Source: Actinomycetota bacterium (GTDB lineage: Bacteria > Actinomycetota > UBA4738 > HRBIN12). Taken from it: DNA of 55,658 nucleotides. A program made the translations under genes and the position numbers. Shown one piece after another: positions 3,672 through 23,243 of the stretch (positions within the stretch are counted from its first letter, which is position 1; each line of letters starts with the position of its first letter). The stretch is taken from assembly GCA_048594645.1 (NCBI GenBank), contig JBMDWR010000167.1:1-55658 (forward strand), in the 5' to 3' direction. The notes beneath the pieces were generated by a model. It searched no databases, had not been told where the DNA came from, and was given only the letters and a program-made list of their open reading frames with translations.

Positions 3672-3693
3672 AGTATCTTGGCGTAGAGATACT
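3672..3693. promoter_or_regulatory. palindromic operator copy 1 (AGTATCT-TGGCGTAG-AGATACT)
   Basis: Perfect 7-bp inverted arms with an 8-bp spacer, in the divergent region between the LLM oxidoreductase (start 3575) and the MarR gene. It is one of five related sites. A TTGACT hexamer at 3702-3707 could be a -35 for the MarR gene. Confidence 0.7.
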
Positions 3694-3786
3694 CTAGGCT
3701 GTTGACTGGCGTCAAGCCAGGCGGTTCACTCGGCCTGCGTCTTGGCTGGAACGAAGCGCTTGCACTCCAAGGGAAGGGCGGGGACG

Positions 3787-4374
3787 GTGGCGACGGCCAG
3801 GGATCAGGTCGACAGGATCCTCCGGCAGTGGGCGCGGGAGCGCCCTGATCTCGACACGTCCCCGATGTCGGTGATCGCGCGGATCTCCCGCCTGTCCAGG
3901 ATCCTCGAGCGCCGGATCGAGGACTTGCTGGAGCAGCACGGTCTGAACGAACCGCAGTTCGGGGTCCTCGCCGCTCTCCGCCGCGCGGGACCGCCCTACT
4001 GCCTGTCCCCGACGGCCCTGTACAGCTCGCTGCTGATCTCCTCCGGCGCGATGACGAATCGGCTCGACCGCCTCACGGCGCTGGGTCTGGTCCGTCGGGT
4101 GCCGGACCCCGGCGACCGCCGCAGCTCGCTCGTGCAGCTCACGCCGAAGGGCCTCCGCATCGTCGAGCGTGCGGTTGGGGCCCACACCGCGAACGAGCAG
4201 GCGCTGCTCTCGTCCCTGTCGGTGTCGCAACAGCGGGATCTGGCGAAGCTGCTGCGAACGCTGCTGTCCCGCTTCGAGGACGAGGCGCAGCTGCACGTGC
4301 GGATCGACTCGCTCGATCCCGACGGCACTAGCGCGCGGTCCAACCGCCGTCGATCTTCAGGTGCTGGCCGGTGA
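3787..4374 (+). CDS. MarR family transcriptional regulator
   Basis: ORF 3742..4374. The winged-helix region ...LNEPQFGVLAALRRAGPPYCLSPTALYSSLLISSGAMTNRLDRLTALGLVRRVPDPGDRRSSLVQLTPKG is a classical MarR pattern. GTG 3787 follows GGGAAGGGCGGGGA. TTG 3742 is an alternative start without an RBS. The 3' end overlaps the convergent SDR gene by 47 nt. Confidence 0.85.
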   Translation: MATARDQVDRILRQWARERPDLDTSPMSVIARISRLSRILERRIEDLLEQHGLNEPQFGVLAALRRAGPPYCLSPTALYSSLLISSGAMTNRLDRLTALGLVRRVPDPGDRRSSLVQLTPKGLRIVERAVGAHTANEQALLSSLSVSQQRDLAKLLRTLLSRFEDEAQLHVRIDSLDPDGTSARSNRRRSSGAGR

Positions 4375-5083
4375 TATAGCTCGCGTCGGGTGAGGCGAGG
4401 AACAGGACCGCACCCACCACATCGGCCGGCGCTCCGACGCGGCCGAGCGGCGTGTGATCGTGCACGTATCGCAGGTTCTCCTCCACGTCGAGCCACTGCG
4501 TGTTGAGGTCCGTCCGGATGTAGCCGGGGCCGACGGCGTTCACCCGGATCGTCGGTGCCCACCGGACGGCGAGCGCCCGCGTCATCTGCACGATCGCGGC
4601 CTTGCTGGCCTGATACGTCACGGCCGCCCGCGTGACGACCTCGGCGGCGATCGAAGCGACGTTCACGATCGCGCCTCCCGCTGCACCCAGCATCCGCTCT
4701 CCTACCGCCTGCGACACGAAGAACGTCCCTCGGACGTTGGTGTCGAACACGGTGTCGAACTCGTCGGCTGTCACGCTCGGCGGGTCGGTCCGGACGATCG
4801 CGCCCGCGGCGTTGACGAGGACGTCGATGCGGTCGCGCCACGCCCACGCCTCGGCGACGGCGTCCCGGATCGTCCCGACGTCGGTCACGTCGGCGCCCAC
4901 GGGACGGAAGGCACCACCGTCACGGCCGATCTCCTCTCCGAGCGTCCCCAAGGCGTCCAGTGAGCGCGCGATGCCGACGACGCCCGCTCCGGCTCCGGCG
5001 AACGCCAGCGCGATGGCACGGCCGATGCCGCGGCTGGCGCCGGTCACAAGGACCACCCGGCCGGTCGGATCCGTTCCCACCAA
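4328..5083 (-). CDS. SDR family oxidoreductase
   Basis: 251-aa ORF with the cofactor motif VTGASRGIG, NAAG, the catalytic Y-x3-K (YQASKAA) and PGYIRT. GGAGG lies upstream of the TTG 5083 / GTG 5080 starts. Confidence 0.9.
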   Translation of the reverse strand: MVGTDPTGRVVLVTGASRGIGRAIALAFAGAGAGVVGIARSLDALGTLGEEIGRDGGAFRPVGADVTDVGTIRDAVAEAWAWRDRIDVLVNAAGAIVRTDPPSVTADEFDTVFDTNVRGTFFVSQAVGERMLGAAGGAIVNVASIAAEVVTRAAVTYQASKAAIVQMTRALAVRWAPTIRVNAVGPGYIRTDLNTQWLDVEENLRYVHDHTPLGRVGAPADVVGAVLFLASPDASYITGQHLKIDGGWTAR

Positions 5084-5110
5084 GGCACCTCCAGCGGAGA
5101 CGGCGAAAGA

Positions 5111-5132
5111 GATATCTTTACGTTTAGATACC
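5111..5132. promoter_or_regulatory. palindromic operator copy 2 (GATATCT-TTACGTTT-AGATACC)
   Basis: Lies in the divergent region between the SDR start (5083) and the Mo-hydroxylase large-subunit start (5208). 6 of 7 arm positions are complementary and the spacer contains CGT as in the other copies. Confidence 0.65.
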
Positions 5133-5207: not shown

Positions 5208-7526
5208 GTGTGCGAGACGGATCGGTGGGTCGGAGCATCGCTGGCGCGGAAGGAAGACGAGCGGCTCGTCCGGGGCGCCGGCCGATTCGTCGCCGACATC
5301 TCGTTCCCGGATCAGGTGCACGCGACGTTCGTTCGCAGCACCTTGGCGCACGCGCGGATCGCGAACATCGACGCCTCGGCGGCGCGCGCGGCGCCCGGTG
5401 TGGTCGGCGTGATGACCGCATCGGACGTTCCGGCGGGGCCGATGCCGCCGTTCCTGTGGGACACGCCGCCGGAAAAGCTCGTGGACGCGCTGAAGCCCAT
5501 GCTGAGGCCGTGTCATCCCCCGCTGCTCCCGGCGGACCGCGTTCGATTCGTCGGCCAGGCCGTGGCCGTGGTGCTGGCGGAGAGCCGGTACGCGGCGGAG
5601 GACGCCGCCGCCCTGGTTGAGGTCGACCTCGAGCCCATGCCGGCGCTCGGCACGATCGACGCGGCGCTCGCTCCCGATGCGCCCATCGTGCACGAGGGTT
5701 GGGACGACAACGTCGCCGTCCGCTTCACCGTTCGGAAGGACGACGTGGAGGGCGCGTTCGGAGCAGCGGCCACGGTGGTCCAGGAGCGGTTCGAGATGCA
5801 GCGACAGGCCGGGGTCCCTATGGAGACACGCGGCGCCGTCGCGACGGTCGACGACGGGCACCTCACGGTGTGGTCTGCCACGCAGAACGCGCACCCGCTG
5901 CGTCGCGCGCTCAGCCGCGTGTCGGGTCTGCCGCCGGAACGCGTCGACGTGATCGCCCCGGACGTCGGCGGCGGGTTCGGGACCAAGGGCGTGCTGTATC
6001 CCGAGGACCTGATCGTGGGGCTCGCGGCGCTGCGCCTGGGGCGCCCGGTCAAGTGGATCGAGGACCGGATCGAGCACATGCAGAGCGCGATCCACGCGCG
6101 CGAGCAGCGCCACGACCTCCGCATGGGGATCGACGCCGACGGCACGATCGTCGCGCTCGCCGACCGGTTCTTCGTCGACACGGGCGCCTTCAACCCGCTC
6201 GGCCTGGTGATCCCGTACAACACGATCGCGCATCTGATGGGCCCGTACCGCGTGCCGGCCTTCGAGGCCGTCGGGACGTGCGTGATCACGACGAAGGTGC
6301 CGACCGCGCCGTATCGAGGTGCGGGCAGGCCGGAGGCCGTGTTCGCCGTCGAGCGCGCCCTCGACCGCGCCGCCAACGAACTGAGGATCGACCCCGTCGA
6401 GCTCCGCAGACGGAACCTGTTGCGTCCCGACGAGCTGCCGTTCGAAGCGGGCATCCTGTACCGGGACGGTGAGCCGCTCGTGATGGACAGCGGCGACTAC
6501 CCACGAACGCTGTCCCGGGCCGCGGAGCTCCTCGGCTACGAGGCGCTCCGGACGGAGCAGGCGCGCGACGGCGGCTCCGGCCGACTCCTCGGTCTCGGCG
6601 TCGCGTGCTACGTGGAGGGCACCGGCATCGGACCGTTCGAAGGCGCGTCCGTGCGGCTGGATCCGTCGACGGGCGACGTCTCGGCCTCGACGGGGGCATG
6701 CTCGCAAGGCCAGGCGCACGAGACCGTGTTCGCGCAGATCTGCGCCGACGCGCTCGGCGTGCATCCCGACCGGGTCTCCGTCACCGGCGGCGACACCCGC
6801 CTGATCGAGCGTGGCTGGGGAACCGTGGCGAGCAGGAGCGCGGTCGTCGCCGGCAACGCGATCCGGACGGCGGCCTCCTCCCTCCGCACCCAGGTCCTGG
6901 ACGCCGCGGCCGAACGCCTGGAGGTCGCCGCGCCCGATCTGGTGCTCGACGGCGACCGCGTGGTCGTCGCCGGCGCGTCCGAACGCTCGGTCGCGTTGTC
7001 CGACCTCGCGGACGGGGACCCCGAGGTCCTTCGGGCCGTCGACTACTTCGAACCCGGCACCGTGACGTGGGCGAACGGCGCTCACGCCGTCGCCGTCGAG
7101 GTGGACGCCGAGACCGGGGAGATCGCGGTCCTTCGGTACGTCGTCGTCCACGACTGCGGCACCGTCATCAATCCCGTTGTGGTGGACGGACAGGTGCACG
7201 GCGGGGTCGCACAAGGCATCGGTGGCGCGCTGTTCGAGGAGGTCGTGTTCGACGACGAGGGTCAGCTCCTGAACGCCACGATGGCCGACTACCTCGTCCC
7301 CACCGCGACCGAGATCCCGCCGGTGACGCTCGACCATCTGGAGACGCCGACGCCGATGAACCCGCTCGGGGTCAAAGGCGTCGGGGAGGGCGGCGCGGTC
7401 CCGGTGGCGGCGGCGATCGCCGGCGCGGTGGAGGACGCGCTCCGGCCGTTCGGCGTGCGCGTGCACCGGACGCCGCTGTCGCCCGCTGCCGTCCTCGACC
7501 TCATCGAGCGCGCCGGACGCGGCTGA
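5208..7526 (+). CDS. xanthine dehydrogenase / aldehyde oxidase family molybdopterin-binding large subunit (orphan, no adjacent FeS/FAD subunits)
   Basis: The C-terminal ~772 codons of ORF 4632..7526 carry the family signal. The N-terminus VGASLARKEDERLVRGAGRFVADISFP...VHATFVRS is typical. Also present are DVGGGFGTKG, the loop TAPYRGAGRPEA (not the AYRCSFR loop of true CO dehydrogenases) and the C-terminal LGVKGVGEGGAV. GTG 5208 is the only start candidate downstream of the SDR gene, so the start is moderately uncertain. Confidence 0.85.
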   Translation: MCETDRWVGASLARKEDERLVRGAGRFVADISFPDQVHATFVRSTLAHARIANIDASAARAAPGVVGVMTASDVPAGPMPPFLWDTPPEKLVDALKPMLRPCHPPLLPADRVRFVGQAVAVVLAESRYAAEDAAALVEVDLEPMPALGTIDAALAPDAPIVHEGWDDNVAVRFTVRKDDVEGAFGAAATVVQERFEMQRQAGVPMETRGAVATVDDGHLTVWSATQNAHPLRRALSRVSGLPPERVDVIAPDVGGGFGTKGVLYPEDLIVGLAALRLGRPVKWIEDRIEHMQSAIHAREQRHDLRMGIDADGTIVALADRFFVDTGAFNPLGLVIPYNTIAHLMGPYRVPAFEAVGTCVITTKVPTAPYRGAGRPEAVFAVERALDRAANELRIDPVELRRRNLLRPDELPFEAGILYRDGEPLVMDSGDYPRTLSRAAELLGYEALRTEQARDGGSGRLLGLGVACYVEGTGIGPFEGASVRLDPSTGDVSASTGACSQGQAHETVFAQICADALGVHPDRVSVTGGDTRLIERGWGTVASRSAVVAGNAIRTAASSLRTQVLDAAAERLEVAAPDLVLDGDRVVVAGASERSVALSDLADGDPEVLRAVDYFEPGTVTWANGAHAVAVEVDAETGEIAVLRYVVVHDCGTVINPVVVDGQVHGGVAQGIGGALFEEVVFDDEGQLLNATMADYLVPTATEIPPVTLDHLETPTPMNPLGVKGVGEGGAVPVAAAIAGAVEDALRPFGVRVHRTPLSPAAVLDLIERAGRG

Positions 7527-7607: not shown

Positions 7608-8633
7608 TCAGGCGTACCAGCACGCGGCGAGATGCTCGCGGCCCTTGTCCTCCAGGTACGGATCGTCGACGGCGCACCGCTCCTCGGCGATCGGGCACCT
7701 CGTGTGGAAGCGACATCCCGCCGGCGGGTGCATCGGGTTCGGGATCTCACCCGTCAGCACCTGTCGGTGACGCGTCCGCTGTACGCGGGGGTCCGGGATC
7801 GGAACGGCCGACAACAGCGCCTTCGTGTAGGGGTGCTTCGGCTGCTCGTAGAGCTGATCCCGGTCGCCGACCTCGACCAACTTGCCCGCGTACATCACGG
7901 CGATCCGGTGCGAGATGTGCCGCACGACCGAGAGGTCGTGCGCGATGAACAGGTACGTCAGCCCCAGGCGCTCTTGGAGGTCCTGCAACAGGTTCACGAC
8001 CTGTGCTCGGATCGAGACGTCCAGGGCCGAGACGGGCTCGTCGCAGACGATGAAGTCTGGCTCCAGCGCGAGGGCCCGCGCGATGCCGATCCGCTGGCGC
8101 TGACCGCCGCTGAACGCGTGCGGGTACCGGTTCACGGCATCGGACGGCATGCCCACGAGCTCGAGCAGCTCCTTCACCTTGGGACGCGCGTCCGCGATGT
8201 GCTCGACGGCCCCGTGAACGACGAGCGGCTCGCCGACGAGGTCGAGGATCTTCATGCGCGGGTTGAGGCTCGCGTACGGGTCCTGGAAGACCAGCTGCAT
8301 CTCTCGGCGGAGCCCCCTCAGCTGCTCGCCGCCGAGATGCGTGATGTCACGACCCTTGAACCAGATCTTGCCGGTGGTGATCGGCAGCCGCCGAAGGATG
8401 GCTCGGCCAGTCGTCGTCTTGCCCGACCCCGACTCCCCCACCAGCCCCAGCGTCTCCCCGCGCTTGATCTCGAACGAGACGGTCTCGACGGCGTGGACGA
8501 ACAGCCGCTGGCCGCCCCAGAACCCCGACCGGCCGGCCGGGAAGTGGACGGACAGGTTCTCGACCTTGAGGAGCGGCTCACCCGCCGAGGGTCCCTGCTC
8601 CAGCGGTCTCTCCGACAGGCTCAACGAAGGCAC
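7608..8633 (-). CDS. ABC transporter ATP-binding protein (oligopeptide/dipeptide OppF/DppF-like)
   Basis: Walker [10 protein letters not shown], signature FSGGQRQR, Walker [13 protein letters not shown] and the C-terminal oligopeptide-type Cys motif (GCRFHTRCP...ACW). The start may be slightly downstream, because this ORF overlaps the upstream gene by 56 nt. Confidence 0.9.
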
Positions 8634-9600
8634 GCCAGCACGCCACCTCCCTTCCGCCGTCGTGCCGCTCGAGCGGCGGCATCTCGTCGACGCACCGGTC
8701 GATGGCCAGCCTGCAGCGTGGGTGGAACGGGCAACCGGTCGGCGGCTTCACCAGATCGGGAGGCGATCCGTCGATCCCGAGCATCCTCGAACCGACCTCG
8801 TCCAAGCGAGGGGTTGACCCGAGCAGACCGCGCGTGTAGGGATGGCCGGGCCGTTCGAAGACGTCCTCCGTCGACCCGGATTCGACGATCCGGCCCGCGT
8901 ACATCACCGAGATCCGATGGCACACCTGCGCCACGACACCCAGGTCGTGACTGATCAGCAGCACTGCGATCTCGAGCCGCTCCTGCAGGTCGGCGAGCAA
9001 CTCGAGGATCTGGGCCTGGATCGTGACGTCGAGCGCCGTCGTGGGCTCGTCCGCGATCAGCAGCTCCGGGTCGCACGCGAGCGACATCGCGATCAGCATC
9101 CGCTGGCGCATCCCGCCGGAGAACTCGTGCGGGTACTGCTCGACCCGCTTCTCGGGGTTCGAGATCCCCACGAGCTCGAGCAGCTCGATCGTGCGTTCGC
9201 GTGCTCCGGCCCTGCTCATGCCCATGTGGTGCTTCAGGACCTCCCCGATCTGCATGCCGATCGTGAACAGCGGGTTCAGGCTGGTCATCGGGTCCTGGAA
9301 GACCATCGCCAGCTCCTTGCCGCGGATCCTCCGAACGAGACGCTCGCCTTCGTCACCCAGCAGGGACGTGCCCTTCCACCGGATGTCCCCGGCCGTGATC
9401 TTGCCCGGGAGCTTGATCAGCCCCATGGCGGCCAGGGACGTCACGCTCTTGCCAGAACCGGACTCCCCCACCAGGCCGAGCGTCTCCCCGCGATCGAGGC
9501 TGAGATCCACGTCGTGGATCGCGACGACGGTCCCACGCCTCGTGAAGAAGGTCACCTCGAGGCCGTCGACCTCGAGCAACGGCTGCGCGGTCCGGTCCAT
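8578..9600 (-). CDS. ABC transporter ATP-binding protein (OppD/DppD-like)
   Basis: Start ATG 9600 ([16 protein letters not shown]...) overlaps the permease stop (ATGA). Walker A GESGSGKS, signature FSGGMRQR, Walker [13 protein letters not shown] and the C-terminal GCPFHPRC motif are present. The longer 537-aa ORF in the track is an upstream read-through. Confidence 0.9.
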
Positions 9601-10586
9601 CACGAGAGCGCGTTCCCGCCCTTCTGGTGCGCCGACGAAGCCGCGAACCGCTTCTCGCGCTCCTGGGGATCGGCGACGACACGGAGCCAGCTGGCCATCA
9701 TGTTGATCGAGAGCACGGTGATCGCGATCGCCAGGCCGGGCCACGTCACCAGCCACCATGCGCTGAAGATGTAGTCCTGTCCCTGCGCGACCATCAGCCC
9801 CCACGACACCTGCGGCGGCTGGATCCCCAGACCCAGGAAGGACAGGGCCGACTCGGCCAGGATGATGCGCGCGAACTCGAGGACGCCCAGCGTCATGAGC
9901 GGCGAGGTGAGGTTCGGCGTGATGTGCCTGAAGATCACGCGTCTGGGTCTGCAGCCGACGATCTCGGCGGCGTCGATGTAGGCGGTCTCGCGCAGGGAGA
10001 GCACGACGCCTCGGGTCATGCGCGCGTACACCATCCATCCGTTCAGCGCGAGGACGACGATCACGCTGTTCATGCTGGGTTGGATGACCGCGAGGATCAC
10101 CAGGGCGAGCAGCAGACCGGGGAACGCCACCTGGATGTCGGCGATCCGCATGATCACCGCGTCGACGCGCCCGCCGCGATAGCCCGCCCACATCCCCATC
10201 ACGGTGCCGAACGTCCCCGCGAGGACGACCACGGCGAAGCCCACGATCAGCGTCACGCGCGATCCCCAGATGATGCGGGACAGGATGTCGCGGCCGAGGC
10301 TGTCGGTGCCCAGGACGTGCGACAGGCTGCCCGCGTCCGTCCAGAACGGAGGCAGGAGCGAGCGACTGAGGTCCTGCTCGGCAGGGTCGTACGGCGCGAG
10401 CAGCGGGGCGAAGACCGCGACGGCGACCAGGAGAAGCACCACGACGACGCCGAACAGCCCCGCCTTGTCACCTCGGATCTCGCGCAACGCGCTGCGGAGC
10501 GAGCGGAGGACCTCGTACGGCCGCCCACGGAGGAGTTCCTCTTCCTGCTCGGCGAGGATCTCTTCGTCTACGTCGATGCGTGCCAT
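9600..10586 (-). CDS. ABC transporter permease (OppC/DppC-like)
   Basis: Start ATG 10586 (MARIDVDEEIL...) lies 1 nt after the upstream permease stop. It has multiple hydrophobic segments and the BPD-transport EAA-like region ...RETAYIDAAEIVGCRPRRVIFRHITPN. Confidence 0.9.
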   Translation of the reverse strand: MARIDVDEEILAEQEEELLRGRPYEVLRSLRSALREIRGDKAGLFGVVVVLLLVAVAVFAPLLAPYDPAEQDLSRSLLPPFWTDAGSLSHVLGTDSLGRDILSRIIWGSRVTLIVGFAVVVLAGTFGTVMGMWAGYRGGRVDAVIMRIADIQVAFPGLLLALVILAVIQPSMNSVIVVLALNGWMVYARMTRGVVLSLRETAYIDAAEIVGCRPRRVIFRHITPNLTSPLMTLGVLEFARIILAESALSFLGLGIQPPQVSWGLMVAQGQDYIFSAWWLVTWPGLAIAITVLSINMMASWLRVVADPQEREKRFAASSAHQKGGNALS

Positions 10587-10587
10587 A

Positions 10588-11508: not shown

Positions 11509-11536
11509 ACCTTGCCCTCCGGTCCGCGGGCCTGCC

Positions 11537-14969: not shown

Positions 14970-14991
14970 GGTATCTTACCGTCGAGACATC
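14970..14991. promoter_or_regulatory. palindromic operator copy 4, degenerate right arm (GGTATCT-TACCGTCG-AGACATC)
   Basis: Lies in the divergent region between the MFS gene (start ~14904) and the PNPOx-like gene (start 15004). The left arm and the CGT spacer core are conserved. The right arm has a two-base change (AGACAT versus AGATAC). Confidence 0.5.
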
Positions 14992-15003
14992 GGGAGGCGC
15001 CGC

Positions 15004-15474
15004 GTGACCCGCGAGATCAGCGATCGACTGCCGGACCAGGTGATGCGCGCCTTCGACGGACGCGACGTCGAGGGGAAGATCGGCATCGCGTACCTGTTGA
15101 TGACGGTCGATCCGGAAGGCACGCCACGCCCGTGCATGCTCTCGGCCGGTGAGATCTTGGCGCCGGACGACCGGCATCTGCGCGTCGCGCTGTGGCCGGG
15201 CACCAACACGACGCGCAACCTGACGAACGGCGGCCCCGTCCTGCTGTGCTACGTGGCGCCGGGGACGACGCTGTACGTGCGCGCGCGCCCGCGCGCGCTC
15301 GGCCGGTCGGAGGAGGTGCGCCTCGAACGCTTCGAGCTGGACGTGGTCTCCGTGGAGACGGACGCCCATCCCGGGATGCCGGTGACGAGCCCCATCACGT
15401 TCGAGGTGGCGTCGGGCGACGTCGCGAAGGTCGCCGACTCATGGCGCGAGCAGCTCCGCGCGCTCGCGGAATGA
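15004..15474 (+). CDS. pyridoxamine 5'-phosphate oxidase-like (FMN/F420-binding split-barrel) family protein
   Basis: GTG 15004 lies 6 nt after GGGAGG. The pattern ...IAYLLMTVDPEGTPRPCMLSAGEI...LRVALWPGTNTTRNLTNGGPVLL... follows the PNPOx-like pattern (TVD-x2-G-x-P ... s-x-t-x-NL). The assignment rests on pattern recognition only. Confidence 0.55.
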   Translation: MTREISDRLPDQVMRAFDGRDVEGKIGIAYLLMTVDPEGTPRPCMLSAGEILAPDDRHLRVALWPGTNTTRNLTNGGPVLLCYVAPGTTLYVRARPRALGRSEEVRLERFELDVVSVETDAHPGMPVTSPITFEVASGDVAKVADSWREQLRALAE

Positions 15475-15484
15475 CGAACGCGTT

Positions 15485-16804
15485 TCATGATGCGAGCGCC
15501 TCGCGGGCGCGGTCGATCCACCATCCCAGGCACGCCACCGCGTTCCGGCGCGCGCGCGGGTCCGGGTTCATCACGGCCTCGAACCCGAAGTAGCACCCCG
15601 CCTGGACCAACGTTGCGAACAGGCACGCGCGCAGGGCGTCCCGGTCGACCCGCGCAGCCCCCTCGATCGCCGCGTCCAGGACGGGGGCCGGACCTCCCGG
15701 ATGGGCGGTCCCGAGGTTGAAGGCCAGCCACGTGAGGTCAAGGGCCGGCGGAGCGACGGCGGCGAGCCCCCAGTCGATCAAGGTCACGCGTGGCCCGCGG
15801 AAGCCGGCGTTGGCGGGCCGCAGGTCGCCGTGCACGAGCGACGCCGGATGCGAACGCAGCCGGTCGGCGAGCTCCCTCGGGCGCTCCAACGCCGACGCGA
15901 GCGCGTCCGCGACGTCATCGGGAACGACCCTCGGCAGGAGCTCCCAGCCGCGGCCGATCACCTTCGGCGCCAGGTCGGATCCGGCGCGCTCGCGCTCGGC
16001 CGTCGCGGGTGCGAAGGCGAGCAAACGGTCCTCCAGGGTGCACAGGGAGCCTTCGCTCGGCGGCTCGACGTGGGCCTGCATCCCTGCGACGGCACCGGCG
16101 AGGCGGCGGATGCCAGCGATCGACGTTCGCCGCGGGGCGAGCCCGGTCGACAGATCTCGCATCACGACGATGCGTTCCCCTCCGTGCTCGATCACGCCGA
16201 CGACGCCGTGGTCGACGAACGCGCCGACCCGCTCGAGCACGCCCGCCCGCCACAACCACGCCTCCCGTCCGCGGTCGTGGGTCGCTCGCTGGAGCCAGCT
16301 GCCCAGGGGCCGCAGACGCTTCGCGAAGAAGACGGAGCCGTCGACCGTCTTCCACCGTTCGACGAGCGTGCCCGAGATGCCCGGTTCGACCTGCCAGCGC
16401 CGCACCACGCGCGGCAGTCCGAGCCCGCGGACGTCCGGCAGCGGCGGCAGCTCGGGCAGCGGTGCTCGCTCGGGAAGCACGACGTGCACCGCGATGGTCC
16501 CGTCCCGGAGGTGGACCAGATGACGACGACGGCGCCGCGTTCCGTCCTCGAGCCGCGACTCGATCCGAACGATCGCGCCGCCGGGCACGGCTCGGCTGCT
16601 CAACACCCCGGGACGTCCCGGCAGGAACAGCGAGCCGAGCGATGCGTGCACGGCGTCGTGGCCGTCGATCCTGACCGACCGTTCCGGGACGTTGACGTCG
16701 AGCGCCGCATCGGACGCGTACAGTGCCGCCAGGCCGGTCGCGTCGCCTGCGGTTGCCCGCACCAGGAGCCGTTCGAGGCTGCCCGGCGCCGGGTGGTGCG
16801 TCAC
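15485..16804 (-). CDS. two-domain protein: N-terminal NTF2/SnoaL-like domain fused to an APH/choline-kinase-type phosphotransferase domain
   Basis: GTG 16804 overlaps the ubiX stop (GTGA). The N-terminal ~110 aa (LERLLVRATAGDATGLAALYASDAALDV...) are NTF2-like. The C-terminal part has the kinase catalytic loop LVHGDLRPANAGF and the metal-binding LIDWG motif of the PF01636-type fold. Confidence 0.75.
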   Translation of the reverse strand: MTHHPAPGSLERLLVRATAGDATGLAALYASDAALDVNVPERSVRIDGHDAVHASLGSLFLPGRPGVLSSRAVPGGAIVRIESRLEDGTRRRRRHLVHLRDGTIAVHVVLPERAPLPELPPLPDVRGLGLPRVVRRWQVEPGISGTLVERWKTVDGSVFFAKRLRPLGSWLQRATHDRGREAWLWRAGVLERVGAFVDHGVVGVIEHGGERIVVMRDLSTGLAPRRTSIAGIRRLAGAVAGMQAHVEPPSEGSLCTLEDRLLAFAPATAERERAGSDLAPKVIGRGWELLPRVVPDDVADALASALERPRELADRLRSHPASLVHGDLRPANAGFRGPRVTLIDWGLAAVAPPALDLTWLAFNLGTAHPGGPAPVLDAAIEGAARVDRDALRACLFATLVQAGCYFGFEAVMNPDPRARRNAVACLGWWIDRAREALAS

Positions 16805-17433
16805 GAGCTCGCGTCGCCTCCGCCGCCGGGTGCGATCCGCGGCGTCCAGCCCTGCCTCCGACGTTCGCCCCATCGACGGACGAGGTCGTGGCCCACCCCG
16901 AAGTGGTCCAGCATCCGCCCCACGGTGTGGTCGACCATCTCGTCGAGCGACCTCGGCCTGGCGTAGAACGCTGGCACCGGCGGCATGACGATCGCCCCGG
17001 CCTTCGCGACGGCCAGCATGTTCTCGAGGTGGATCACCGAGAACGGTGACTCGCGCACGAGGAGCAGCAGGCGTCTCCCCTCCATCAGGGAGACCTCGGC
17101 AGCGCGGTGGACGAGGTTCTCCGTGATCCCGTGGGCCACGGCCGCGAGCGACTTCATGCTGCACGGGGCCACGATCATCCCGCGGGTGAGGAGGTCGCCG
17201 GACGCCGGCGGTGCATCCAGATCGTCCTCGCTGTAGACGTGGTCGGCGAGCGCCCGCACGTCCGACGGCTTCCACGAGGTCTCTGCGGCGATCGTCTTCT
17301 CCGCCCAGCGGCTCACGACCAGGTGGGTCTCGATCCCTTCGGCACCCAGGACCTCGAGCGTTCGGATGCCGTAGATCGCCCCCGTGGCCCCGGTGATCGC
17401 CACGACGATCGGCAGGTGATCGTCGCCGGACAT
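16801..17433 (-). CDS. ubiX: UbiX family flavin prenyltransferase (prFMN synthase)
   Basis: 210 aa. IVVAITGATGAIYGIRTLEVL, MIVAPCSMKSLAAVAHG, VHRAAEVSLMEGRRLLLLVRESP and IVMPPVPAFYARP are all canonical UbiX/Pad1 motifs. Confidence 0.9.
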   Translation of the reverse strand: MSGDDHLPIVVAITGATGAIYGIRTLEVLGAEGIETHLVVSRWAEKTIAAETSWKPSDVRALADHVYSEDDLDAPPASGDLLTRGMIVAPCSMKSLAAVAHGITENLVHRAAEVSLMEGRRLLLLVRESPFSVIHLENMLAVAKAGAIVMPPVPAFYARPRSLDEMVDHTVGRMLDHFGVGHDLVRRWGERRRQGWTPRIAPGGGGDASS

Positions 17434-17451
17434 CTCACGCGAGGGAGCGGC

Positions 17452-17829
17452 TCAGGACGACACGTCCTGACCGTAGGGTCCGCTCGTGATGCCGTAGATG
17501 TTGCCATCGGGCCCGCGGAAGTGCGCCCAGGCGAACTCGCCCCAGGTGTGGTTCGCGTGGAGGAACTCGACACCGCGCCCTTCGAGCTCCGAGCGAGCCG
17601 CATCGAGGTCGTCCACGAGGAACTCCACCACGATGCCGCCCTTGAACTCGGCGTAGTGCTCGTGCCCGGGCGCGAAGACCTCGACCCAGTCGCCGCTCGA
17701 GACGCGCAGAACCGTGAGCGTGTCCGACGCGTGGAACGTGGACAGCCCCAGCACGTCACGGAAGAACGTCACCGTCTCGTCGTACCGGTCGGTCGCCGTC
17801 CCGGCCCACACGATCCCCTTGATCTCCAC
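17452..17829 (-). CDS. VOC (glyoxalase/bleomycin resistance/dioxygenase) family protein
   Basis: GTG 17829 is preceded by GAGGAGGGA, 18 nt after the large-subunit stop. It is a 125-aa single VOC module (IKGIVWAGTATDRYDETVTFFRDVLGL...VEFLVDDLDAARSELEGRGVEF). Confidence 0.8.
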   Translation of the reverse strand: MEIKGIVWAGTATDRYDETVTFFRDVLGLSTFHASDTLTVLRVSSGDWVEVFAPGHEHYAEFKGGIVVEFLVDDLDAARSELEGRGVEFLHANHTWGEFAWAHFRGPDGNIYGITSGPYGQDVSS

Positions 17830-17846
17830 CGCTGCTCCCTCCTCGT

Positions 17847-20282
17847 CTACGATCCTGTGGCCGCGTCGGCCTGTTCGATCAGTGCTCGCAGCTGCGCCGG
17901 AGACACGGGAACGTGGTCGATCCGCACGGCGAGCGGCCGCAAGGCGTCCATGATCGCGTTGGCGATGGCCGCCGGCGGCGAGACCGCCCCGCCCTCTCCG
18001 CACCCCTTGATCCCGAACGGGTTCAGCTCGCTCAGGAACACCTGGTGACCCACCTCGATCGGCGGAACCTCGGCCGCCGTCGGCAACAGGTAATCCATGT
18101 ACGTCCCCGTGAGCAGCTGCGCCTCGTCGTCGTACGCGACGTGCTCGTACAGCGCGTTGCCGACGCCGTGGGCCACGCCGCCCTGGATCTGACCCTCGAC
18201 CACGGTGGGGTTCAGCATCTGGCCGCAGTCGTCCACGGTGACGTACCGCAACAGACGGACGAACCCCGTCTCGGCGTCCACCTCGACGCCCACGACGTGC
18301 GTCGCGGAGGCGAACGTCACCGTCGGCGGCACGAAGTAGTACGTGACCTCCAGGCCAGGATCCTGTTCGGGCGGCAGGACGCTGCGGGGGCTCGGCTGCG
18401 CCGCCTTGGCAACCTGCGCCAACGTGAGCGAGCGGTCCGGCGAGCCGCGGGCCACCACCACGCCGTCGACGATGTCCAGGTCGGACCGGTCGGCCTCGAG
18501 CAGCTCGGCCGCGACCGTGAGCACCTTCTCGCGCACCATCCCGGCCGCGACGCCCACGGCCGATCCGGCCGTGACGGCGCTGCGGCTCGCGAACGTTCCG
18601 ATCCCGTGCGCGATCAGCGAGGTGTCGCCGCCGGTCACGGTGACGTCCTCCGGCCGGACGCCCAACTGGTCGGCGCAGATCTGCGAGAGCGTCGTCTCGA
18701 GGCCCTGCCCGTGCGGCTTCGCGCCGGTCGCGACCGAGACGTGACCGCTGGCGTCGACCCGGACGACCGCCCCCTCGTGGGGCCCGTAGCCGGACCCCTC
18801 CACGTAGGACGAGACGCCGACTCCCAGCCGCCGCCCCTGCGCTCTCGCGGCCTCCTGCTCGGCTCGGAACGCCTCGTACCCGAACAACTCGAGCGCCTGA
18901 TCGAGCTGCGCGGGGAAGTCGGCGCTGTCGTAGACGATGTCGACGCCGTCGCGGTACGGCATGCCCATCGCGTACGGCATCTGGTCGGGGCGGATCAGGT
19001 TCCGCCGCCGCACCTCGATCGCATCGAATCCCAGCTCGTGCGCCACGAGGCCGATCACGCGATCCATCACGAACGTGACCTCGGGCCGGCCGGCTCCGCG
19101 CACCGGCGTCACCGGGGCCTTGTTCGTGAGGACCGCGAGGCTCTCGACGCGCAGGTGGTCGATCGCGAACTGCCCGCGCAGGTGCGCGGCGGAGTTGTAG
19201 GAGACCGTGATCGCGTACGGGTTGTACGCGCCGGCGTCCATCAGGAAGCGGTCTCGGAGGGCAAGGATCCGTCCATCGTCGTCGAACGCGACCTCGATGT
19301 CGTGCAGCTGATCGCGAGCGTGACGCGTGTTGGCCAGGTTCTCCCGCCGATCCTCGAGCCAGCGGACGGGACGGCGCAGGTCCCGCGCGAGGAACGGGAT
19401 CAGGACGTCCTCCGGGAACATCCCGGTCCCGAAGCTTCCCCCCATGTCGGGGCCGATCACGTGCACGGCATCCGTCGGCATCCCAAGCATCTCGGAGATG
19501 AACGTGCGGACGAGGTGCGGACGCGCGTTCGCGTCCCAGACCGTCAGCCGGTCGCGACCCTCCTCGTACTGCGCCAGCACGCCACGCGGCTCCATCGCGT
19601 TGCCGGCGATCCGTCCCATCGACAGGCGTGCCTTCAGCGTTCGGGGCGCCTGGGCGAACACGGCGTCGGGGTCACCGGCCTGCACCGTGAAGCTCGTCTG
19701 CACGTTGTCGCCGAGCTCCGGATGGAGCACCGGCGCGTCGGGTGCGATCGCCTGTTGGGGATCTGCGACGACCGGGAGCGGATCGTAGTCGACCTCGATC
19801 AGCTCGAGCGCATCCTCGGCGATGTATCGGTCGATCGCGACCACCGCGGCGACCGGCTGACCGACCCAGGAGACCACGCCCTCGGCCAGCACCGGCATCG
19901 GACACGACTTCAGCGTCGGGCCGACCTTGTCCTTGAGCAGCTGCGAGATCTCGGTCCTCGCCGCCTCGACGAACGGCCCCATCTTGCCCTCGAGGTCGCC
20001 GTGCGTGACCACCGTGACCACGTCGCGGTGCTCGAGGGCACGCGACACGTCCATCGACGTCACCCGCGCGTGCGCGAACGGGCTCCGCAGGATCGCGACG
20101 TGCACCGTCCCCGGCAGCGCGATGTCGCCGACGTGCCGGGCCTTGCCGGTGATCAGCCGGGCGTCTTCCTTCCGCCGCAGGCGTTGACCGACGTAGGTGG
20201 GCGGCTTCACCTCGGGATGTGCGAGGCGGCGTTCCGGCCCGCGCGGGTCGGCTGGGGCGTGCGGGTGGGGGGTAACGCTCAC
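17847..20282 (-). CDS. xanthine dehydrogenase family molybdopterin-binding large subunit
   Basis: GTG 20282 overlaps the small-subunit stop (GTGA). It has YVGQRLRRKEDARLITGKARHVGDIALPG...VHVAILRS, the loop TPVRGAGRPE and the C-terminal FGIKGCGEGGAV with the conserved Glu. Length is 811 aa. Confidence 0.9.
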   Translation of the reverse strand: MSVTPHPHAPADPRGPERRLAHPEVKPPTYVGQRLRRKEDARLITGKARHVGDIALPGTVHVAILRSPFAHARVTSMDVSRALEHRDVVTVVTHGDLEGKMGPFVEAARTEISQLLKDKVGPTLKSCPMPVLAEGVVSWVGQPVAAVVAIDRYIAEDALELIEVDYDPLPVVADPQQAIAPDAPVLHPELGDNVQTSFTVQAGDPDAVFAQAPRTLKARLSMGRIAGNAMEPRGVLAQYEEGRDRLTVWDANARPHLVRTFISEMLGMPTDAVHVIGPDMGGSFGTGMFPEDVLIPFLARDLRRPVRWLEDRRENLANTRHARDQLHDIEVAFDDDGRILALRDRFLMDAGAYNPYAITVSYNSAAHLRGQFAIDHLRVESLAVLTNKAPVTPVRGAGRPEVTFVMDRVIGLVAHELGFDAIEVRRRNLIRPDQMPYAMGMPYRDGVDIVYDSADFPAQLDQALELFGYEAFRAEQEAARAQGRRLGVGVSSYVEGSGYGPHEGAVVRVDASGHVSVATGAKPHGQGLETTLSQICADQLGVRPEDVTVTGGDTSLIAHGIGTFASRSAVTAGSAVGVAAGMVREKVLTVAAELLEADRSDLDIVDGVVVARGSPDRSLTLAQVAKAAQPSPRSVLPPEQDPGLEVTYYFVPPTVTFASATHVVGVEVDAETGFVRLLRYVTVDDCGQMLNPTVVEGQIQGGVAHGVGNALYEHVAYDDEAQLLTGTYMDYLLPTAAEVPPIEVGHQVFLSELNPFGIKGCGEGGAVSPPAAIANAIMDALRPLAVRIDHVPVSPAQLRALIEQADAATGS

Positions 20283-20764
20283 GCGGGCTCCCGCCCGGCC
20301 GCCGCGCGCACCGCCTTGACGATGTTCTGGTAGCCGGTGCAGCGGCACAGGTTGCCTGAGAGCCTCGCCCGGACGGCGTCCTCGTCGTCGACGCCGGGGG
20401 CCCCTTCGGCCAGGTACTCGGTGACCGCGAGCATGAACCCCGGCGTGCAGAAGCCGCATTGCAGCGCGTGGTTGTCGGTGAACGCCTGCTGGACCGGGCT
20501 CAGCGTCCCGTCGGGCTCGGCGAGACCCTCGACCGTGACGAGCTCGTGCCCCTGCGCTTGGACCGCGAACATCAGGCACGAGCGGACCGAACGGCCGTCC
20601 AGCAGGATCGTGCATGCGCCGCAGACGCCGTGCTCGCACCCGAGATGCGTTCCGGTGAGCCCGAGGACGTCGCGCAGGAAGTCCGCGAGCGTCATCCGCG
20701 GCTCGGCCAGACCGGAGCGCTCGGTCCCGTTGACGTTCAGCGTGATCTCGATCTCGCCCGTCAT
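20279..20764 (-). CDS. (2Fe-2S)-binding small subunit of a molybdenum hydroxylase
   Basis: ATG 20764 overlaps the FAD-subunit stop (ATGA). It has the two cluster motifs C-x4-C-x2-C (CEHGVCGAC...C) and CGFCTPG...C-x-C (NLCRCTGY). Confidence 0.92.
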   Translation of the reverse strand: MTGEIEITLNVNGTERSGLAEPRMTLADFLRDVLGLTGTHLGCEHGVCGACTILLDGRSVRSCLMFAVQAQGHELVTVEGLAEPDGTLSPVQQAFTDNHALQCGFCTPGFMLAVTEYLAEGAPGVDDEDAVRARLSGNLCRCTGYQNIVKAVRAAAGREPA

Positions 20765-21639
20765 GCGGCGGCTCCCTGAGCGCGCTCGTACGCCCGTGCC
20801 AGCGTGCGCCTGACGAGCACCTTCGCCACGTGTCTCCGGTAGTCCGAGGATCCGTGGAGGTCGGACATCGGCTCGATCTCTGGCTCGATCGCCTCGGCGG
20901 CGGCGGCGAATGTCTCCTCGCCGGGCGCGGCGCCGGCGAGCACCGCCTCGGCCGCGGTGGACCGCACCGCGGTGTCGCGGACGCCGATCAGCACGACACG
21001 TCCCTGCCCGACGGTACCGGCATCGGTGAGCGACAGGAGCGCCCCCGCGCCCGCGATTGCGAAGTCGCCGTGGCGACGCGCCAGCTCCGTGTACGCGGAC
21101 CCGATCCGGCCCACAGGGAGCCGAAGCCGGACCTGCGTCAGGATCTCGTCGGGACGCAGGGTCGTCGTGAAGTAGGACTCGAACAGCTCGCTCCCGGCGA
21201 TCGTTCGGACGCCCTGGACGCTGCGCGCCTCGACCTCGCCGTCGAGGGCGAGCACGAGCGACGGCCATTCCGCGGCGGAGTCTGCGTGCGCGATGCTGCC
21301 ACCCACGGTTCCGCGGTTCCTGATCGCGACGTGCCCGATCAGCGACACGCCGTCGGCCAGCATCGCGCAACGTTCGCGCATGCCGGGGAACAGCTCGACG
21401 TCGCGATGCCGTGCGAGCGCGCCGATCGTGAGCGTGTCGCCGTCCAGCGCGACCCCGTCGAGACCCGGCACCCGATTCACGTCGACGAGGATCTCGGGCG
21501 CCGCGAGCCGGAAGGCGAGCAGCGGGACGAGGCTCTGACCGCCGGCGATCACCTTGGCGTCATCGCCGCGTTCGCCGAGCAGCCGGACGACCTCATCGAG
21601 GGTCTCCGGCGCGGCGTACTCGAACGGTGCAGGCTTCAT
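20761..21639 (-). CDS. FAD-binding medium subunit of a molybdenum hydroxylase (CoxM/XdhB-like)
   Basis: 292 aa. MKPAPFEYAAPETLDEVVRLL...KVIAGGQSLVPLL and AIRNRGTVGGSIAHAD are typical FAD_binding_5/CO_deh_flav_C motifs. Confidence 0.9.
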   Translation of the reverse strand: MKPAPFEYAAPETLDEVVRLLGERGDDAKVIAGGQSLVPLLAFRLAAPEILVDVNRVPGLDGVALDGDTLTIGALARHRDVELFPGMRERCAMLADGVSLIGHVAIRNRGTVGGSIAHADSAAEWPSLVLALDGEVEARSVQGVRTIAGSELFESYFTTTLRPDEILTQVRLRLPVGRIGSAYTELARRHGDFAIAGAGALLSLTDAGTVGQGRVVLIGVRDTAVRSTAAEAVLAGAAPGEETFAAAAEAIEPEIEPMSDLHGSSDYRRHVAKVLVRRTLARAYERAQGAAA

Positions 21640-21706
21640 GGGACCGGCTGCTCCCCCAAGGTGGAGGCGCGGGCGGAACCTCTCCGGCCGCCCCCGCGCA
21701 CGACCC

Positions 21707-23176
21707 TCAGTCCATCCGCGTCTGTTTCCATAGGTCGCCGAACAGCCCGTCCAGGTCGACGTCGGAGACCCCGGGCGTCGAGATCTCGACCGGGAAGTCC
21801 GCCTTCCGCGTAGCGTCGATGCCCACCTTCGTCACGAGGTGTGACCCGCCGGCCGGATCGTACGAGGCGGGATCGAGGGGCGACCCACGCGCGTGGGGCA
21901 CGACGAAGGCGTCCTGATGGAACCGCACCCGCTGGGCGATCGCGTGCCAGACCGCCGCATCGTTGGTGATGTCGACGTCCTCGTCGACGACCACGACGTA
22001 CTTGAGGAACGGGTCGGCGGCGAACGCCGCCATGGCGGCGTTCTTCGGGTCACCCTCGATCAGCTTCTCCATCTGCACGTAGCAGATGTACCGGCAGCGC
22101 CCGGATGGTGGGACGTAGGCCGCTTTCACGCCTCCGGATGCCAGACGGCAGGCGCGGTAGATCATCGAGTTCCGCGTCACGCCGGACAGCAGGAGGTTGT
22201 CCCAGTGGCCGACGAACGAGCTCTGATAGTGAGCGTTCCTGCGCATCGTGATCGCCTTGACGTAGACGACCGGGTTGTTGCGTTCGGGACCGTACGTGCC
22301 CGGGTACTCGCCGAACGGCGCCTCGCGCTCTCGCTCCGTCGGATGGATCTCGCACTCGAGCACGATCTCCGCCCGGGCCGGAACCTCGACGTCGATCGTC
22401 TCGCACTTCACCATCTCCAGCGGCTCTCCGAGGATCGCGCCGGCCATCGCGAACTCGTCGACGTCGATGCTCGTGAACGAGAGGAACCCGAGCTCCACGG
22501 CCGGATGGAGGCCGATCGCCACCGCCATCTCCGTCGGTCGGCCGTGCTTCAGGTTCTTCTGCATGATGTAGTGCCCGTGCGCCGTCTCGGAGATCTGGAT
22601 CCCGAACTTGTTCCGGCTCTTGGCCTGCAAGCGGTAGATCCCGGCGTTGCGGATGCCGGTGTCGGGGTCCTTCATGATCTCGTAGCCGAGCGTGATGTAC
22701 CTGCCGACCTCGTCCTCGTACCCGGGATCGACGGCGCCGCCGTCGAGCTCGTGGTACTTGAACATCGGGAGCTTGAAGACGTCGACGTCGTCGCCCTTCA
22801 CGATCACCTCTTTGCAGGGTGCGTCGGCGGGCTCGATCATGACGGGTTCGATGCCCTGGTCCTCCCGAGCCATGTACTCGAGGATGAAGTCCCTCGGCGT
22901 CGCGTCGATCGGCAGGCCGATCGCCATGGCCAGTCGCGGGAAGCTCGCGTGGACGTTCGTGACCGCAGGAAGGTCCGACCCTTTCACGTTGTCGAACACG
23001 ACCAGCGGGTATCGCCGCTCGTTCTCCAGGCGCCACAGGATCGCCAGCGGTTCGAAGATCGGGTCCACTTCCTGCTTCACGCGCAGGATCTCGTTCGGGT
23101 AGTACTTCTCGAGGAACCGGATGAAGGACTGCAGGTCCTTCCCGAGCTCCGCCTTCTGCTCAGGCGGCAGTGGCAT
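21707..23176 (-). CDS. ubiD: UbiD family (prFMN-dependent) decarboxylase
   Basis: ATG 23176 (MPLPPEQKAELGKDL...) lies 4 nt after GAGGGGGGA. The track ORF starts at TTG 23194. Family patterns are present: IRNAGIYRLQ, ETAHGHY and REAPFGEYPGTYG. Confidence 0.9.
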   Translation of the reverse strand: MPLPPEQKAELGKDLQSFIRFLEKYYPNEILRVKQEVDPIFEPLAILWRLENERRYPLVVFDNVKGSDLPAVTNVHASFPRLAMAIGLPIDATPRDFILEYMAREDQGIEPVMIEPADAPCKEVIVKGDDVDVFKLPMFKYHELDGGAVDPGYEDEVGRYITLGYEIMKDPDTGIRNAGIYRLQAKSRNKFGIQISETAHGHYIMQKNLKHGRPTEMAVAIGLHPAVELGFLSFTSIDVDEFAMAGAILGEPLEMVKCETIDVEVPARAEIVLECEIHPTEREREAPFGEYPGTYGPERNNPVVYVKAITMRRNAHYQSSFVGHWDNLLLSGVTRNSMIYRACRLASGGVKAAYVPPSGRCRYICYVQMEKLIEGDPKNAAMAAFAADPFLKYVVVVDEDVDITNDAAVWHAIAQRVRFHQDAFVVPHARGSPLDPASYDPAGGSHLVTKVGIDATRKADFPVEISTPGVSDVDLDGLFGDLWKQTRMD

Positions 23177-23221
23177 CTGTCCCCCCTCGTTCAAGGCCCG
23201 TCCGCGCAGCAGCGAGCCGGA

Positions 23222-23243
23222 GATATCTCAACGTCTAGATATC
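23222..23243. promoter_or_regulatory. palindromic operator copy 5 (GATATCT-CAACGTCT-AGATATC) overlapping a candidate promoter of the ubiD operon
   Basis: Perfect 7-bp arms, 46 nt upstream of the ubiD ATG. On the minus strand, TTGCAT (23264-23269), a 17-nt spacer and CATGAT (23241-23246) form a sigma-70-like promoter. Its -10 element overlaps the operator arm. Confidence 0.7.

Follow-up and report, generated by a model that had tools for sequence, protein, structure and literature searches.

Which protein reads a palindrome that recurs at the promoters of a bacterial gene cluster, and which genes does it bring together? This question is raised by contig JBMDWR010000167.1 of an actinomycetotal assembly (GCA_048594645.1), of which the whole 55,658-base stretch, hereafter the window, was analysed. 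The window contains an 18-bp palindrome in five copies, each located in a promoter region of a gene cluster of approximately 23 kb. Our analysis suggests that the five palindromes are most probably operators of a presumably homodimeric MarR-family repressor of the UrtR (uric-acid-responsive MarR) type, which is encoded at 3787–4374 and would govern the cluster. A first-pass annotation of the same DNA had proposed a shared operator for the adjacent MarR-family repressor, and this proposal gained independent support from the match of the sites to the UrtR operator consensus, from conservation at gene junctions, and from the presence of the palindrome at the genes of homologous regulators.

A strict pattern search of the window with RTATCT-N8-AGATAY gave four exact matches, at 3673–3692, 5112–5131, 13104–13123 and 23223–23242 (operators 1, 2, 3 and 5 in Table 1), while the number expected from dinucleotide-preserving shuffles was 0.00. 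The remaining site, operator 4 at 14970–14991, reads TATCT-TACCGTCG-AGACA and carries a single core mismatch (AGACA for AGATA). This degenerate site still fits the operator consensus of the UrtR family, T6xxC9T10-N8-A19G20xxA23, which has been defined crystallographically (Song et al., NAR 2024, PMC11602129) and which, written as T..CT-N8-AG..A, is matched by all five window sites. The centre of the operator is a conserved ACGT. A 22-bp scoring matrix was then made from the window sites and their counterparts in related loci. The five sites scored 27.2–35.8 bits with this matrix; the runner-up position in the whole window reached 11.0 bits and lay inside a coding sequence, and zero sites were detected by the same scan in the right-hand 32 kb, which carries housekeeping genes.

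Most of what the first-pass annotation had claimed for these sites agreed with our results. Their coordinates and letters were correct, CGT was present at spacer positions 4–6 in all five, and their intergenic location was confirmed by gene calls based on third-position G+C content and Pfam, as were the labels of the genes at each site (LLM/MarR, SDR/Mo large subunit, ABC binding protein/UbiX-like, MFS/PNPOx-like, and upstream of ubiD; full names in Table 1). The claim that the window holds no further full copies is in line with the score of the next-best position. The proposed consensus RTATCT-N8-AGATAY stood for four sites, but not for operator 4 with its core mismatch. Chance or a mobile repeat as the source of the palindromes was rejected on the basis of the shuffles and of the strictly promoter-proximal, junction-specific conservation described below. 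An RNA element was also rejected, the only Rfam match in the window being an unrelated flavin mononucleotide (FMN) riboswitch.

To what extent is this arrangement conserved? Related loci were found via close homologues of the regulator and by scans of genome and metagenome collections with the regulator and UbiD, and are referred to by L numbers where they must be told apart. A related cluster was present in 47 loci, with protein identities of 45–93% and at least three gene orders. These loci, 514 kb in all, contained 93 sites of at least 15 bits, compared with about 1 in resampled sequence, and none of the 93 was located inside a mapped gene. Like the window sites, these 93 agree with the UrtR operator consensus. 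The matrix scan that had been suggested as a check placed the sites of these loci in intergenic regions at orthologous genes, and the palindrome was kept at matching junctions of the 47 loci. The information content of operators relative to their flanks is a partly circular measure, the same matrix having picked the sites, and was not relied on; junction occupancy, counted as a site within 200 bp upstream of a gene, is the fair test. By this measure, a site was present upstream of ubiD in 20 of 25 loci, of the gene for the short-chain dehydrogenase/reductase (SDR) in 9 of 10, of that for the lone molybdenum (Mo) subunit, MoL1, in 11 of 12, of the major facilitator superfamily (MFS) transporter gene in 9 of 11, of the PNPOx-like gene in 10 of 12, and of the gene for the luciferase-like oxidoreductase (LLM) in 5 of 5. 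For the binding protein of the ATP-binding cassette (ABC) importer the count was 6 of 11, the other sites lying at about 270–310 bp. No site was found upstream of internal operon genes (Mo M, S and L subunits, glyoxalase, ABC permeases and ATPases; 0/91, comprising 0/67 in the ubiD operon and 0/24 in the ABC operon).

The palindrome thus recurs at the same gene junctions despite differing gene order, and upstream of first genes only. The operator upstream of ubiD was kept whether tyrS or the lone Mo subunit gene precedes ubiD, and a counterpart of operator 1 was located between LLM and the MarR gene, or else upstream of LLM, in seven loci (L001, L004, L007, L009, L010, L098 and L110). The regulator gene stays with the cluster across rearrangements (L010, L098, L107, L110 and L112).

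Operators were also detected upstream of hyuA in L001 (4202), L004 (3951), L007 (3403) and L009 (5039), and in the hyuB–coxG gap of L001 (8134). Because related loci carry an operator upstream of hyuA, the regulon probably extends past the left edge of the window: it would include hyuAB–coxG as a tenth unit, and a sixth operator is predicted just left of the window, upstream of hyuA. Other high-scoring operators were observed beside genes that are absent from the window, at L009 13806, L007 19034 and L010 6372, of which the first lies between an amidohydrolase-like open reading frame (ORF; N-terminal sequence) and a DUF1989-like ORF, both labelled by eye. The set of accessory genes in the regulon may differ from one lineage to another. 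In L004 (assembly GCA_037024495.1), a DHDPS-family gene replaces coxG (7840–8760) and an aldehyde dehydrogenase gene follows the lone Mo subunit (13781–15295), which may be hints on the chemistry of the pathway.

Next, we considered the protein that would bind these sites. The regulator gene most likely starts at GTG 3787, with AAGGGAAGGG before it, the longest ORF beginning at TTG 3742. By Pfam (MarR_2, 1.4e-15; MarR, 7.3e-11), its product belongs to the MarR superfamily, dimeric proteins of about 140–200 residues with a winged helix-turn-helix, and its best sequence matches among solved structures were Pectobacterium PecS (E 2e-41), Burkholderia MftR (E 1e-39) and Deinococcus HucR (E 1e-19). 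The identity was 49% to PecS and 47.5% to MftR, compared with 54% between these two proteins. A 153-residue MarR-family chain, 9qdr, which we take to be Staphylococcus aureus MhqR, matched in the same kind of search at E 7.6e-4. The AlphaFold model of the regulator (mean pLDDT, the per-residue confidence measure, 82) showed an extra N-terminal helix at residues 7–18 carrying Trp15, and its top fold matches were the MftR–operator and PecS–operator complexes; dozens of MarR structures also matched.

The base-reading residues of UrtR proteins have been mapped in operator complexes, an α0 helix with Trp is specific to UrtR, and the major-groove core element of the family is T/S-S-G-T, accompanied by three invariant DNA-binding arginines (PMC11602129). 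In the window protein, Trp15 aligns with the α0 Trp of PecS (W24; W20 in HucR) and MftR and is present in 118 of 120 homologues, and Arg66 and His133, which correspond to PecS R75 in helix α2 and H142 in helix α5, are invariant in the clade. The core element reads S85-S86-G87-A88, with Ala instead of Thr at the fourth position. The three DNA-binding arginines, Arg92, Arg104 and Arg112 (PecS R101, R113 and R121), are invariant in the clade, as are S86 and G87 among the DNA-contacting residues. Judged from its sequence, the adjacent regulator is UrtR-like, rather than a generic MarR protein. One additional feature of the clade is a partly conserved Arg-rich C-terminal tail of about 30 residues (consensus ...RSSRRR..G..R; window 4279–4374), which was modelled with low confidence and lies beyond the part of the protein that could be aligned with the crystallized chains of PecS and MftR. 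The sequence coding for this tail shares 47 bp with the convergent SDR gene, at the 3′ end of the latter.

A similar sequence is also used by a MarR protein of another group. MhqR of S. aureus and Bacillus subtilis, a distant relative, has a near-identical 9-9 repeat, TATCTCGAA-aTCGAaATA (PMC6798810), so the half-site sequence alone cannot identify the binding protein. The palindromes might accordingly be operators of a different regulator whose gene lies beyond the window, for instance a UrtR paralogue of the canonical urate-responsive kind or a MarR of the MhqR type, with the adjacent MarR gene being one more target or its product sharing the sites. We consider this very unlikely: the adjacent regulator follows the cluster through several gene-order rearrangements, retains every UrtR DNA-contact residue, and is the only regulator in the 24-kb region. 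The last point had been made in the first-pass annotation and holds for the genes called in 1–24.5 kb, among which no other DNA-binding regulator was found. In addition, homologous regulators in many phyla have the palindrome at their own gene. Among more distant homologues (42–58% identity), TATCT-N8-AGATA was located within 220 bp upstream of the regulator gene in 37 of 80 loci, from Chloroflexota, Proteobacteria, Cyanobacteria, Deinococcota and Actinomycetota, with 0.0026 expected per upstream stretch searched. Membership of the regulator itself in the MhqR group was rejected, as the 9qdr match is marginal compared with that to PecS and the target genes differ; only the operator is alike.

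How might the UrtR-like repressor act at these sites? By analogy with the PecS and MftR complexes, each monomer would use the S-S-G-A core element of its recognition helix to reach the C-T of TATCT through the major groove, and a wing arginine would touch the outer T in the minor groove. The AT-rich half-sites would coincide with or abut candidate −10 hexamers, with TTGAC or TTGC −35 boxes 5–20 nt off, and a bound dimer would then cover the −10/+1 regions and obstruct RNA polymerase at the promoters of some nine transcription units of the window. A small molecule in the inter-subunit pocket would release the repressor and switch on the whole cluster.

A scan for sigma-70 promoters and terminators over 3500–5300, the segment that holds operators 1 and 2, gave neither, and promoter elements were for this reason inferred from operator-anchored alignments of related loci. 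These alignments indicated conserved −35-like boxes at fixed distances from the operators, on the side of the minus-strand genes (Table 1). For the ABC operon, a cTTGAC box located 3–6 nt from the operator was conserved in 11 relatives, and for ubiD the −35 TTGC occurred at a fixed distance in 20 relatives. The overlap of operator 5 with a candidate −10 element of the ubiD operon, as first annotated, was recovered with the putative −10 CATGAT. On the plus strand, the left half-site is TATCTT in the four divergent regions and TATCTC at operator 5, which is the sole site without a plus-strand gene. Operator 4 ends 12 nt before the GTG start codon of the PNPOx-like gene (15004). The overlap of sites with candidate −35/−10 elements fits repression by the blocking of RNA polymerase.

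The same overlap raises the question of whether the repeated element is mainly a promoter feature, that is, an AT-rich −10-like hexamer that RNA polymerase or a sigma factor finds in G+C-rich DNA. The −10 pattern of actinobacteria is TANNNT, which is what the half-sites TATCTT, TAAGAT and CAAGAT were taken to fit, and half-sites are located 16–18 nt from conserved TTGAC boxes. However, a −10 element needs one hexamer, whereas conservation here extends to both half-sites, to the spacing of exactly 8 bp and to the ACGT centre, which together form a dyad, and dyad symmetry with such spacing is the solved recognition mode of UrtR proteins. Moreover, the offset of the −35 box from the dyad varies among promoters (5, 15–16 and 20 nt) while the dyad is constant. 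An explanation by promoter function is, in our assessment, extremely unlikely.

Some further features of these promoter regions were noted. In a group of related loci (L090–L092, L097–L101 and L107–L113), the promoter-proximal half-site upstream of ubiD was altered from GATATCT to GATAGTA, the distal half being perfect; this change yields a −10-like hexamer, GATAGT, 17 nt from the conserved TTGC box, and may strengthen the promoter at the expense of the operator. Another small palindrome, TTGAC-TGGC-GTCAA, is located at 3702–3715, 9 nt to the right of operator 1. It has been kept in L001 and L007, and its two arms look like −35 boxes, placed back to back, of divergent LLM and marR promoters. 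The string CCTGGCTTGAC is common to the upstream regions of LLM and the ABC operon.

We then compared the ligand pocket of the regulator with that of characterized UrtR proteins. In the UrtR family, urate relieves DNA binding more effectively than xanthine or hypoxanthine does. The urate-contacting residues W24, D68, R75 and H142 of PecS are absolutely conserved in the proteins compared, and the Asp in helix α2 (PecS D68, HucR D73) hydrogen-bonds N3 and N9 of urate and drives allosteric release; mutations of this Asp and of the Arg abolish the urate response in PecS and HucR (PMC11602129). In the window protein, Trp15, Arg66 and His133 occupy the positions of PecS W24, R75 and H142, and the hydrophobic pocket wall is also kept, but Gly59 is found at the position of PecS Asp68, and Ser34 stands in for Arg43, the PecS residue that binds urate at its C8 carbonyl. 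Among the 120 closest homologues (58–98% identity), 85 have G at the Asp position, 31 have A, 3 have N and 1 has S, whereas 71 of the 80 homologue loci from genome collections (42–68% identity) have D. The nine exceptions among these 80 have G, N or L and include the cluster-linked L007–L010. These comparisons suggest that the regulator is UrtR-like in its fold, DNA recognition and operator, yet fails one defining feature of ligand binding. As the Asp that contacts urate has disappeared from the clade, the regulator probably responds to an inducer other than urate, likely a substrate or intermediate of the pathway.

It may be argued instead that the regulator is an ordinary urate- or xanthine-responsive UrtR, that the replacement of Asp by Gly is neutral, and that the cluster is a purine-salvage or urate-related regulon. 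The retention of Trp15, Arg66, His133 and the pocket wall is compatible with this, as is the presence of xanthine-dehydrogenase-family enzymes in the cluster. We nevertheless regard it as unlikely, given that every UrtR protein compared has the Asp and that urate sensing by PecS and HucR is disrupted when it is mutated (PMC11602129), that G, A, N or S stands at this position in 120 of 120 closest homologues, and that the counterpart of PecS Arg43 is Ser here. Uricase, allantoinase and other purine-catabolic genes were absent among the Pfam-labelled genes of the cluster.

Several results weigh against the palindromes being operators through which the adjacent UrtR-like repressor controls the cluster. 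In addition to the negative sigma-70 scan described above, the site scan of the source genome covered the 55.6-kb window, and it is possible that sites occur elsewhere or that a second UrtR-type paralogue uses them. The regulator also lacks the equivalent of Asp68, which PecS and HucR need for ligand-induced release; as this residue is missing, the release step in the window regulator may differ from theirs. Finally, a site precedes just 4 of the 11 related marR genes at a distance of up to 200 bp, and the best candidate for the marR promoter (TTGACT 3702–3707, 17 nt, TTCACT 3725–3730) is located beside operator 1, starting 9 nt beyond it. On account of these last two observations, autoregulation of marR is uncertain and constitutes the weakest link. 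The autoregulatory layout seen in the first-pass annotation thus holds in that operator 1 adjoins the MarR gene, but is less secure with respect to related marR genes and to the position of the promoter candidate.

What is the closest known counterpart of this system? PecS (Pectobacterium, Dickeya, Agrobacterium and Vibrio) and MftR (Burkholderia thailandensis) are UrtR repressors with solved operator complexes (PDB 8yli, 8ylg). With them the window regulator shares, at 47–49% identity, the α0 helix Trp, the Arg66/His133 pair, the S-S-G core and the three DNA-binding arginines, and its operators share with theirs the T..CT-N8-AG..A pattern, near-identical TATCT/AGATA half-sites, and a location in divergent promoter regions, as illustrated by PecO1, TATCTTGACTTCAAGGTA, and MftrO, TGTCTCTACGTCAAGATA (PMC11602129). 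The window regulator differs in having Gly for Asp68, Ser for Arg43, Ala for the fourth Thr of the core, and the Arg-rich C-terminal tail of its clade, and the centre of its operator is ACGT, where theirs is GA-NN-TC. The local target of PecS is the divergent efflux-pump gene pecM (PMC6391409), whereas in the window at least five operators would tie together a catabolic cluster of some nine or ten transcription units. HucR of Deinococcus radiodurans, the founding urate-responsive MarR (fold match 8ylm), is similar in its N-terminal extension and its Trp/Arg/His pocket, but shows 34–36% identity over the structural alignment, and Asp73, essential for its urate response, is missing in the window protein. 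HucR represses a divergent catabolic gene, uricase, and has a single operator.

With respect to layout, the closest system is the MhqR regulon, in which one MarR protein is also associated with several copies of TATCT-N8-AGATA. In B. subtilis, the MhqR repeat is located upstream of four units, azoR2, mhqNOP, mhqED and mhqA, and overlaps the transcription start (PMC6798810). The targets of MhqR, however, are genes for quinone detoxification that lie scattered in the genome rather than side by side in a single catabolic cluster. Control by a single MarR repressor through several palindromic operators that overlap promoters is well established, and the window presents no new regulatory principle. 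What is new is the Asp-less UrtR clade, its predicted role as local regulator of a large multi-operon catabolic cluster, and the delineation of cluster membership by operators.

Which pathway would the repressor control? The cluster encodes two Mo enzymes of the xanthine-dehydrogenase/CO-dehydrogenase family, a hydantoinase/oxoprolinase-type ATP-dependent enzyme, LLM, SDR, a glyoxalase-fold protein and two uptake systems. The best solved relative of its UbiD is HmfF, a furan-2,5-dicarboxylate decarboxylase (6h6v, E 4e-82), a bona fide UbiX is present in the ubiD operon, and the hydroxylase of this operon has flavin adenine dinucleotide (FAD), 2Fe-2S and Mo subunits. All NCBIfam matches (caprolactamase beta, CO-dehydrogenase group 5, generic UbiD/UbiX) fell below threshold, with no curated family at its cut-off. 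The gene content suggests that a heteroaromatic carboxylic acid is taken up, decarboxylated, hydroxylated and reduced and that its ring is opened. The furoate pathway was rejected, as genes for coenzyme A ligase and hydratase are absent although HmfF is the closest relative of UbiD. The lumazine pathway of Cupriavidus sp. LA-1 is analogous: its substrate-inducible lumazine/pterin cluster I combines a Mo lumazine dehydrogenase with a UbiD/UbiX xanthine-8-carboxylate decarboxylase to form xanthine (PMC12391406), and thus likewise pairs a three-subunit hydroxylase of the xanthine-oxidoreductase family with a prenylated-FMN (prFMN) decarboxylase and UbiX for an N-heterocycle. This likeness is an analogy only. 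The lumazine pathway was rejected for the window, since the amidase-signature isomerase and the pterin deaminase of cluster I were not seen among the window genes, and, according to its description, the Cupriavidus UbiD is no close relative of known UbiD members, in contrast to the HmfF-like UbiD of the window. The product of cluster I, xanthine, is a UrtR ligand; the regulators of cluster I are uncharacterized in its description.

Taken further, the Asp-less (Gly/Ala) UrtR-like clade, common in uncultured Actinomycetota (Gaiella-like and related), could be a distinct, dedicated sensor of an undescribed degradation pathway for heteroaromatic acids, with a ligand that would be a new effector for the family. 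We hold this wider interpretation only tentatively, at somewhat less than even weight. If true, the pathway would consist of a prFMN decarboxylase, two Mo-hydroxylases, an ATP-dependent hydantoinase-type ring-opener and F420/flavin reductases, the ligand would perhaps be a larger or carboxylated heterocycle, for example a pteridine or a xanthine-carboxylate-like compound, and the operators would mark the full gene set of the pathway. The operator set serves as a sequence-based marker of genes that belong together in the catabolic cluster, and it ties in genes that synteny alone would miss, namely, hyuAB, the lone Mo large subunit gene, the two transport systems and the PNPOx-like gene. The cluster is widespread in soil metagenomes, from uncultured Actinomycetota. 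As the family has solved DNA and ligand complexes, the two pocket substitutions (Asp to Gly, Arg to Ser) can be turned into a concrete hypothesis on altered ligand specificity, and the regulator could be a practical tool: ligand screening could identify the substrate of the pathway and yield a new biosensor scaffold.

Table 1. Operators, candidate promoters and genes, in window coordinates
Feature	Coordinates	Strand	Details
Operator 1	3672..3693		AGTATCTTGGCGTAGAGATACT; between LLM oxidoreductase (-) and MarR/UrtR-like gene (+); 28.1 bits
Operator 2	5111..5132		GATATCTTTACGTTTAGATACC; between SDR (-) and lone Mo-hydroxylase large-subunit gene (+); 33.9 bits
Operator 3	13103..13124		GGTATCTTGACGTTCAGATACG; between ABC substrate-binding protein operon (-) and UbiX-like gene (+); 29.3 bits
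Operator 4	14970..14991		GGTATCTTACCGTCGAGACATC; between MFS transporter gene (-) and PNPOx-like gene (+); 27.2 bits
Operator 5	23222..23243		GATATCTCAACGTCTAGATATC; upstream of ubiD operon (-), downstream of tyrS; 35.8 bits
LLM candidate promoter	TTGACG 3715-3710, 18 nt, TATCTC 3691-3686	-	−10 inside operator 1; conserved −35 box
SDR candidate promoter	TTGACA 5153-5148, 17 nt, TATCTA 5130-5125	-	−10 inside operator 2; geometry kept in L001, L004
ABC operon candidate promoter	TTGACT 13135-13130, 18 nt, CAAGAT 13111-13106	-	predicted −10 inside operator 3
ubiD operon candidate promoter	TTGCAT 23269-23264, 17 nt, CATGAT 23246-23241	-	predicted −10 with 3-nt overlap with operator 5
MFS possible −10	TAAGAT	-	operator 4 half nearer MFS; anchored alignment
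MoL1 possible −10	TATCTT 5113-5118	+	predicted; left half of operator 2
PNPOx-like possible −10	TATCTT 14972-14977	+	predicted
hyuB	141-1889	+	hydantoinase/oxoprolinase B subunit; Pfam
coxG	1905-2537	+	Pfam
LLM	2568..3626	-	luciferase-like (F420/FMN-type) oxidoreductase; Pfam, NCBIfam
UrtR-like MarR-family putative repressor gene	3787..4374	+	195 aa; Pfam, PDB sequence matches, model
SDR	4328..5083	-	SDR oxidoreductase; Pfam
MoL1	5208..7526	+	lone xanthine-dehydrogenase/CO-dehydrogenase-family molybdenum large subunit; Pfam, NCBIfam
ABC importer operon	7608..13069	-	five genes, peptide/opine type (binding protein, two permeases, two ATPases); Pfam
UbiX-like flavoprotein gene	13195..13738	+	weak Pfam Flavoprotein-family match; start codon picked from sequence
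MFS transporter	13735..14904	-	Pfam
PNPOx-like gene	15004..15474	+	split-barrel flavin/deazaflavin type; weak Pfam match, under curated cut-off
ubiD operon	15485..23176	-	APH-like kinase, UbiX prenyltransferase, glyoxalase-fold, Mo L/S/M subunits, HmfF-like UbiD; Pfam
tyrS	23287-24519	-	gene map

Because the window has a G+C content of 70%, genes were called by third-position G+C and then checked against Pfam. The PNPOx-like gene is preceded by a ribosome-binding site, GGGAGG, and the likely start of ubiD is ATG 23176, after GAGGGGGG. The housekeeping genes of the right-hand 32 kb include those for a penicillin-binding protein, pheST, infC, the rib operon, rsmB, priA, metK and coaBC. The FMN riboswitch (Rfam RF00050, 103 bits) is located at 40968–41096 on the minus strand, upstream of the riboflavin operon (ribD, ribBA, ribH), and is unrelated to the palindromes. 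At 33938–35752 on the minus strand, one stop-to-stop frame showed Pfam matches to both an SpoU-type rRNA methylase and a HisKA domain, and probably represents two adjacent genes or a mis-set start.

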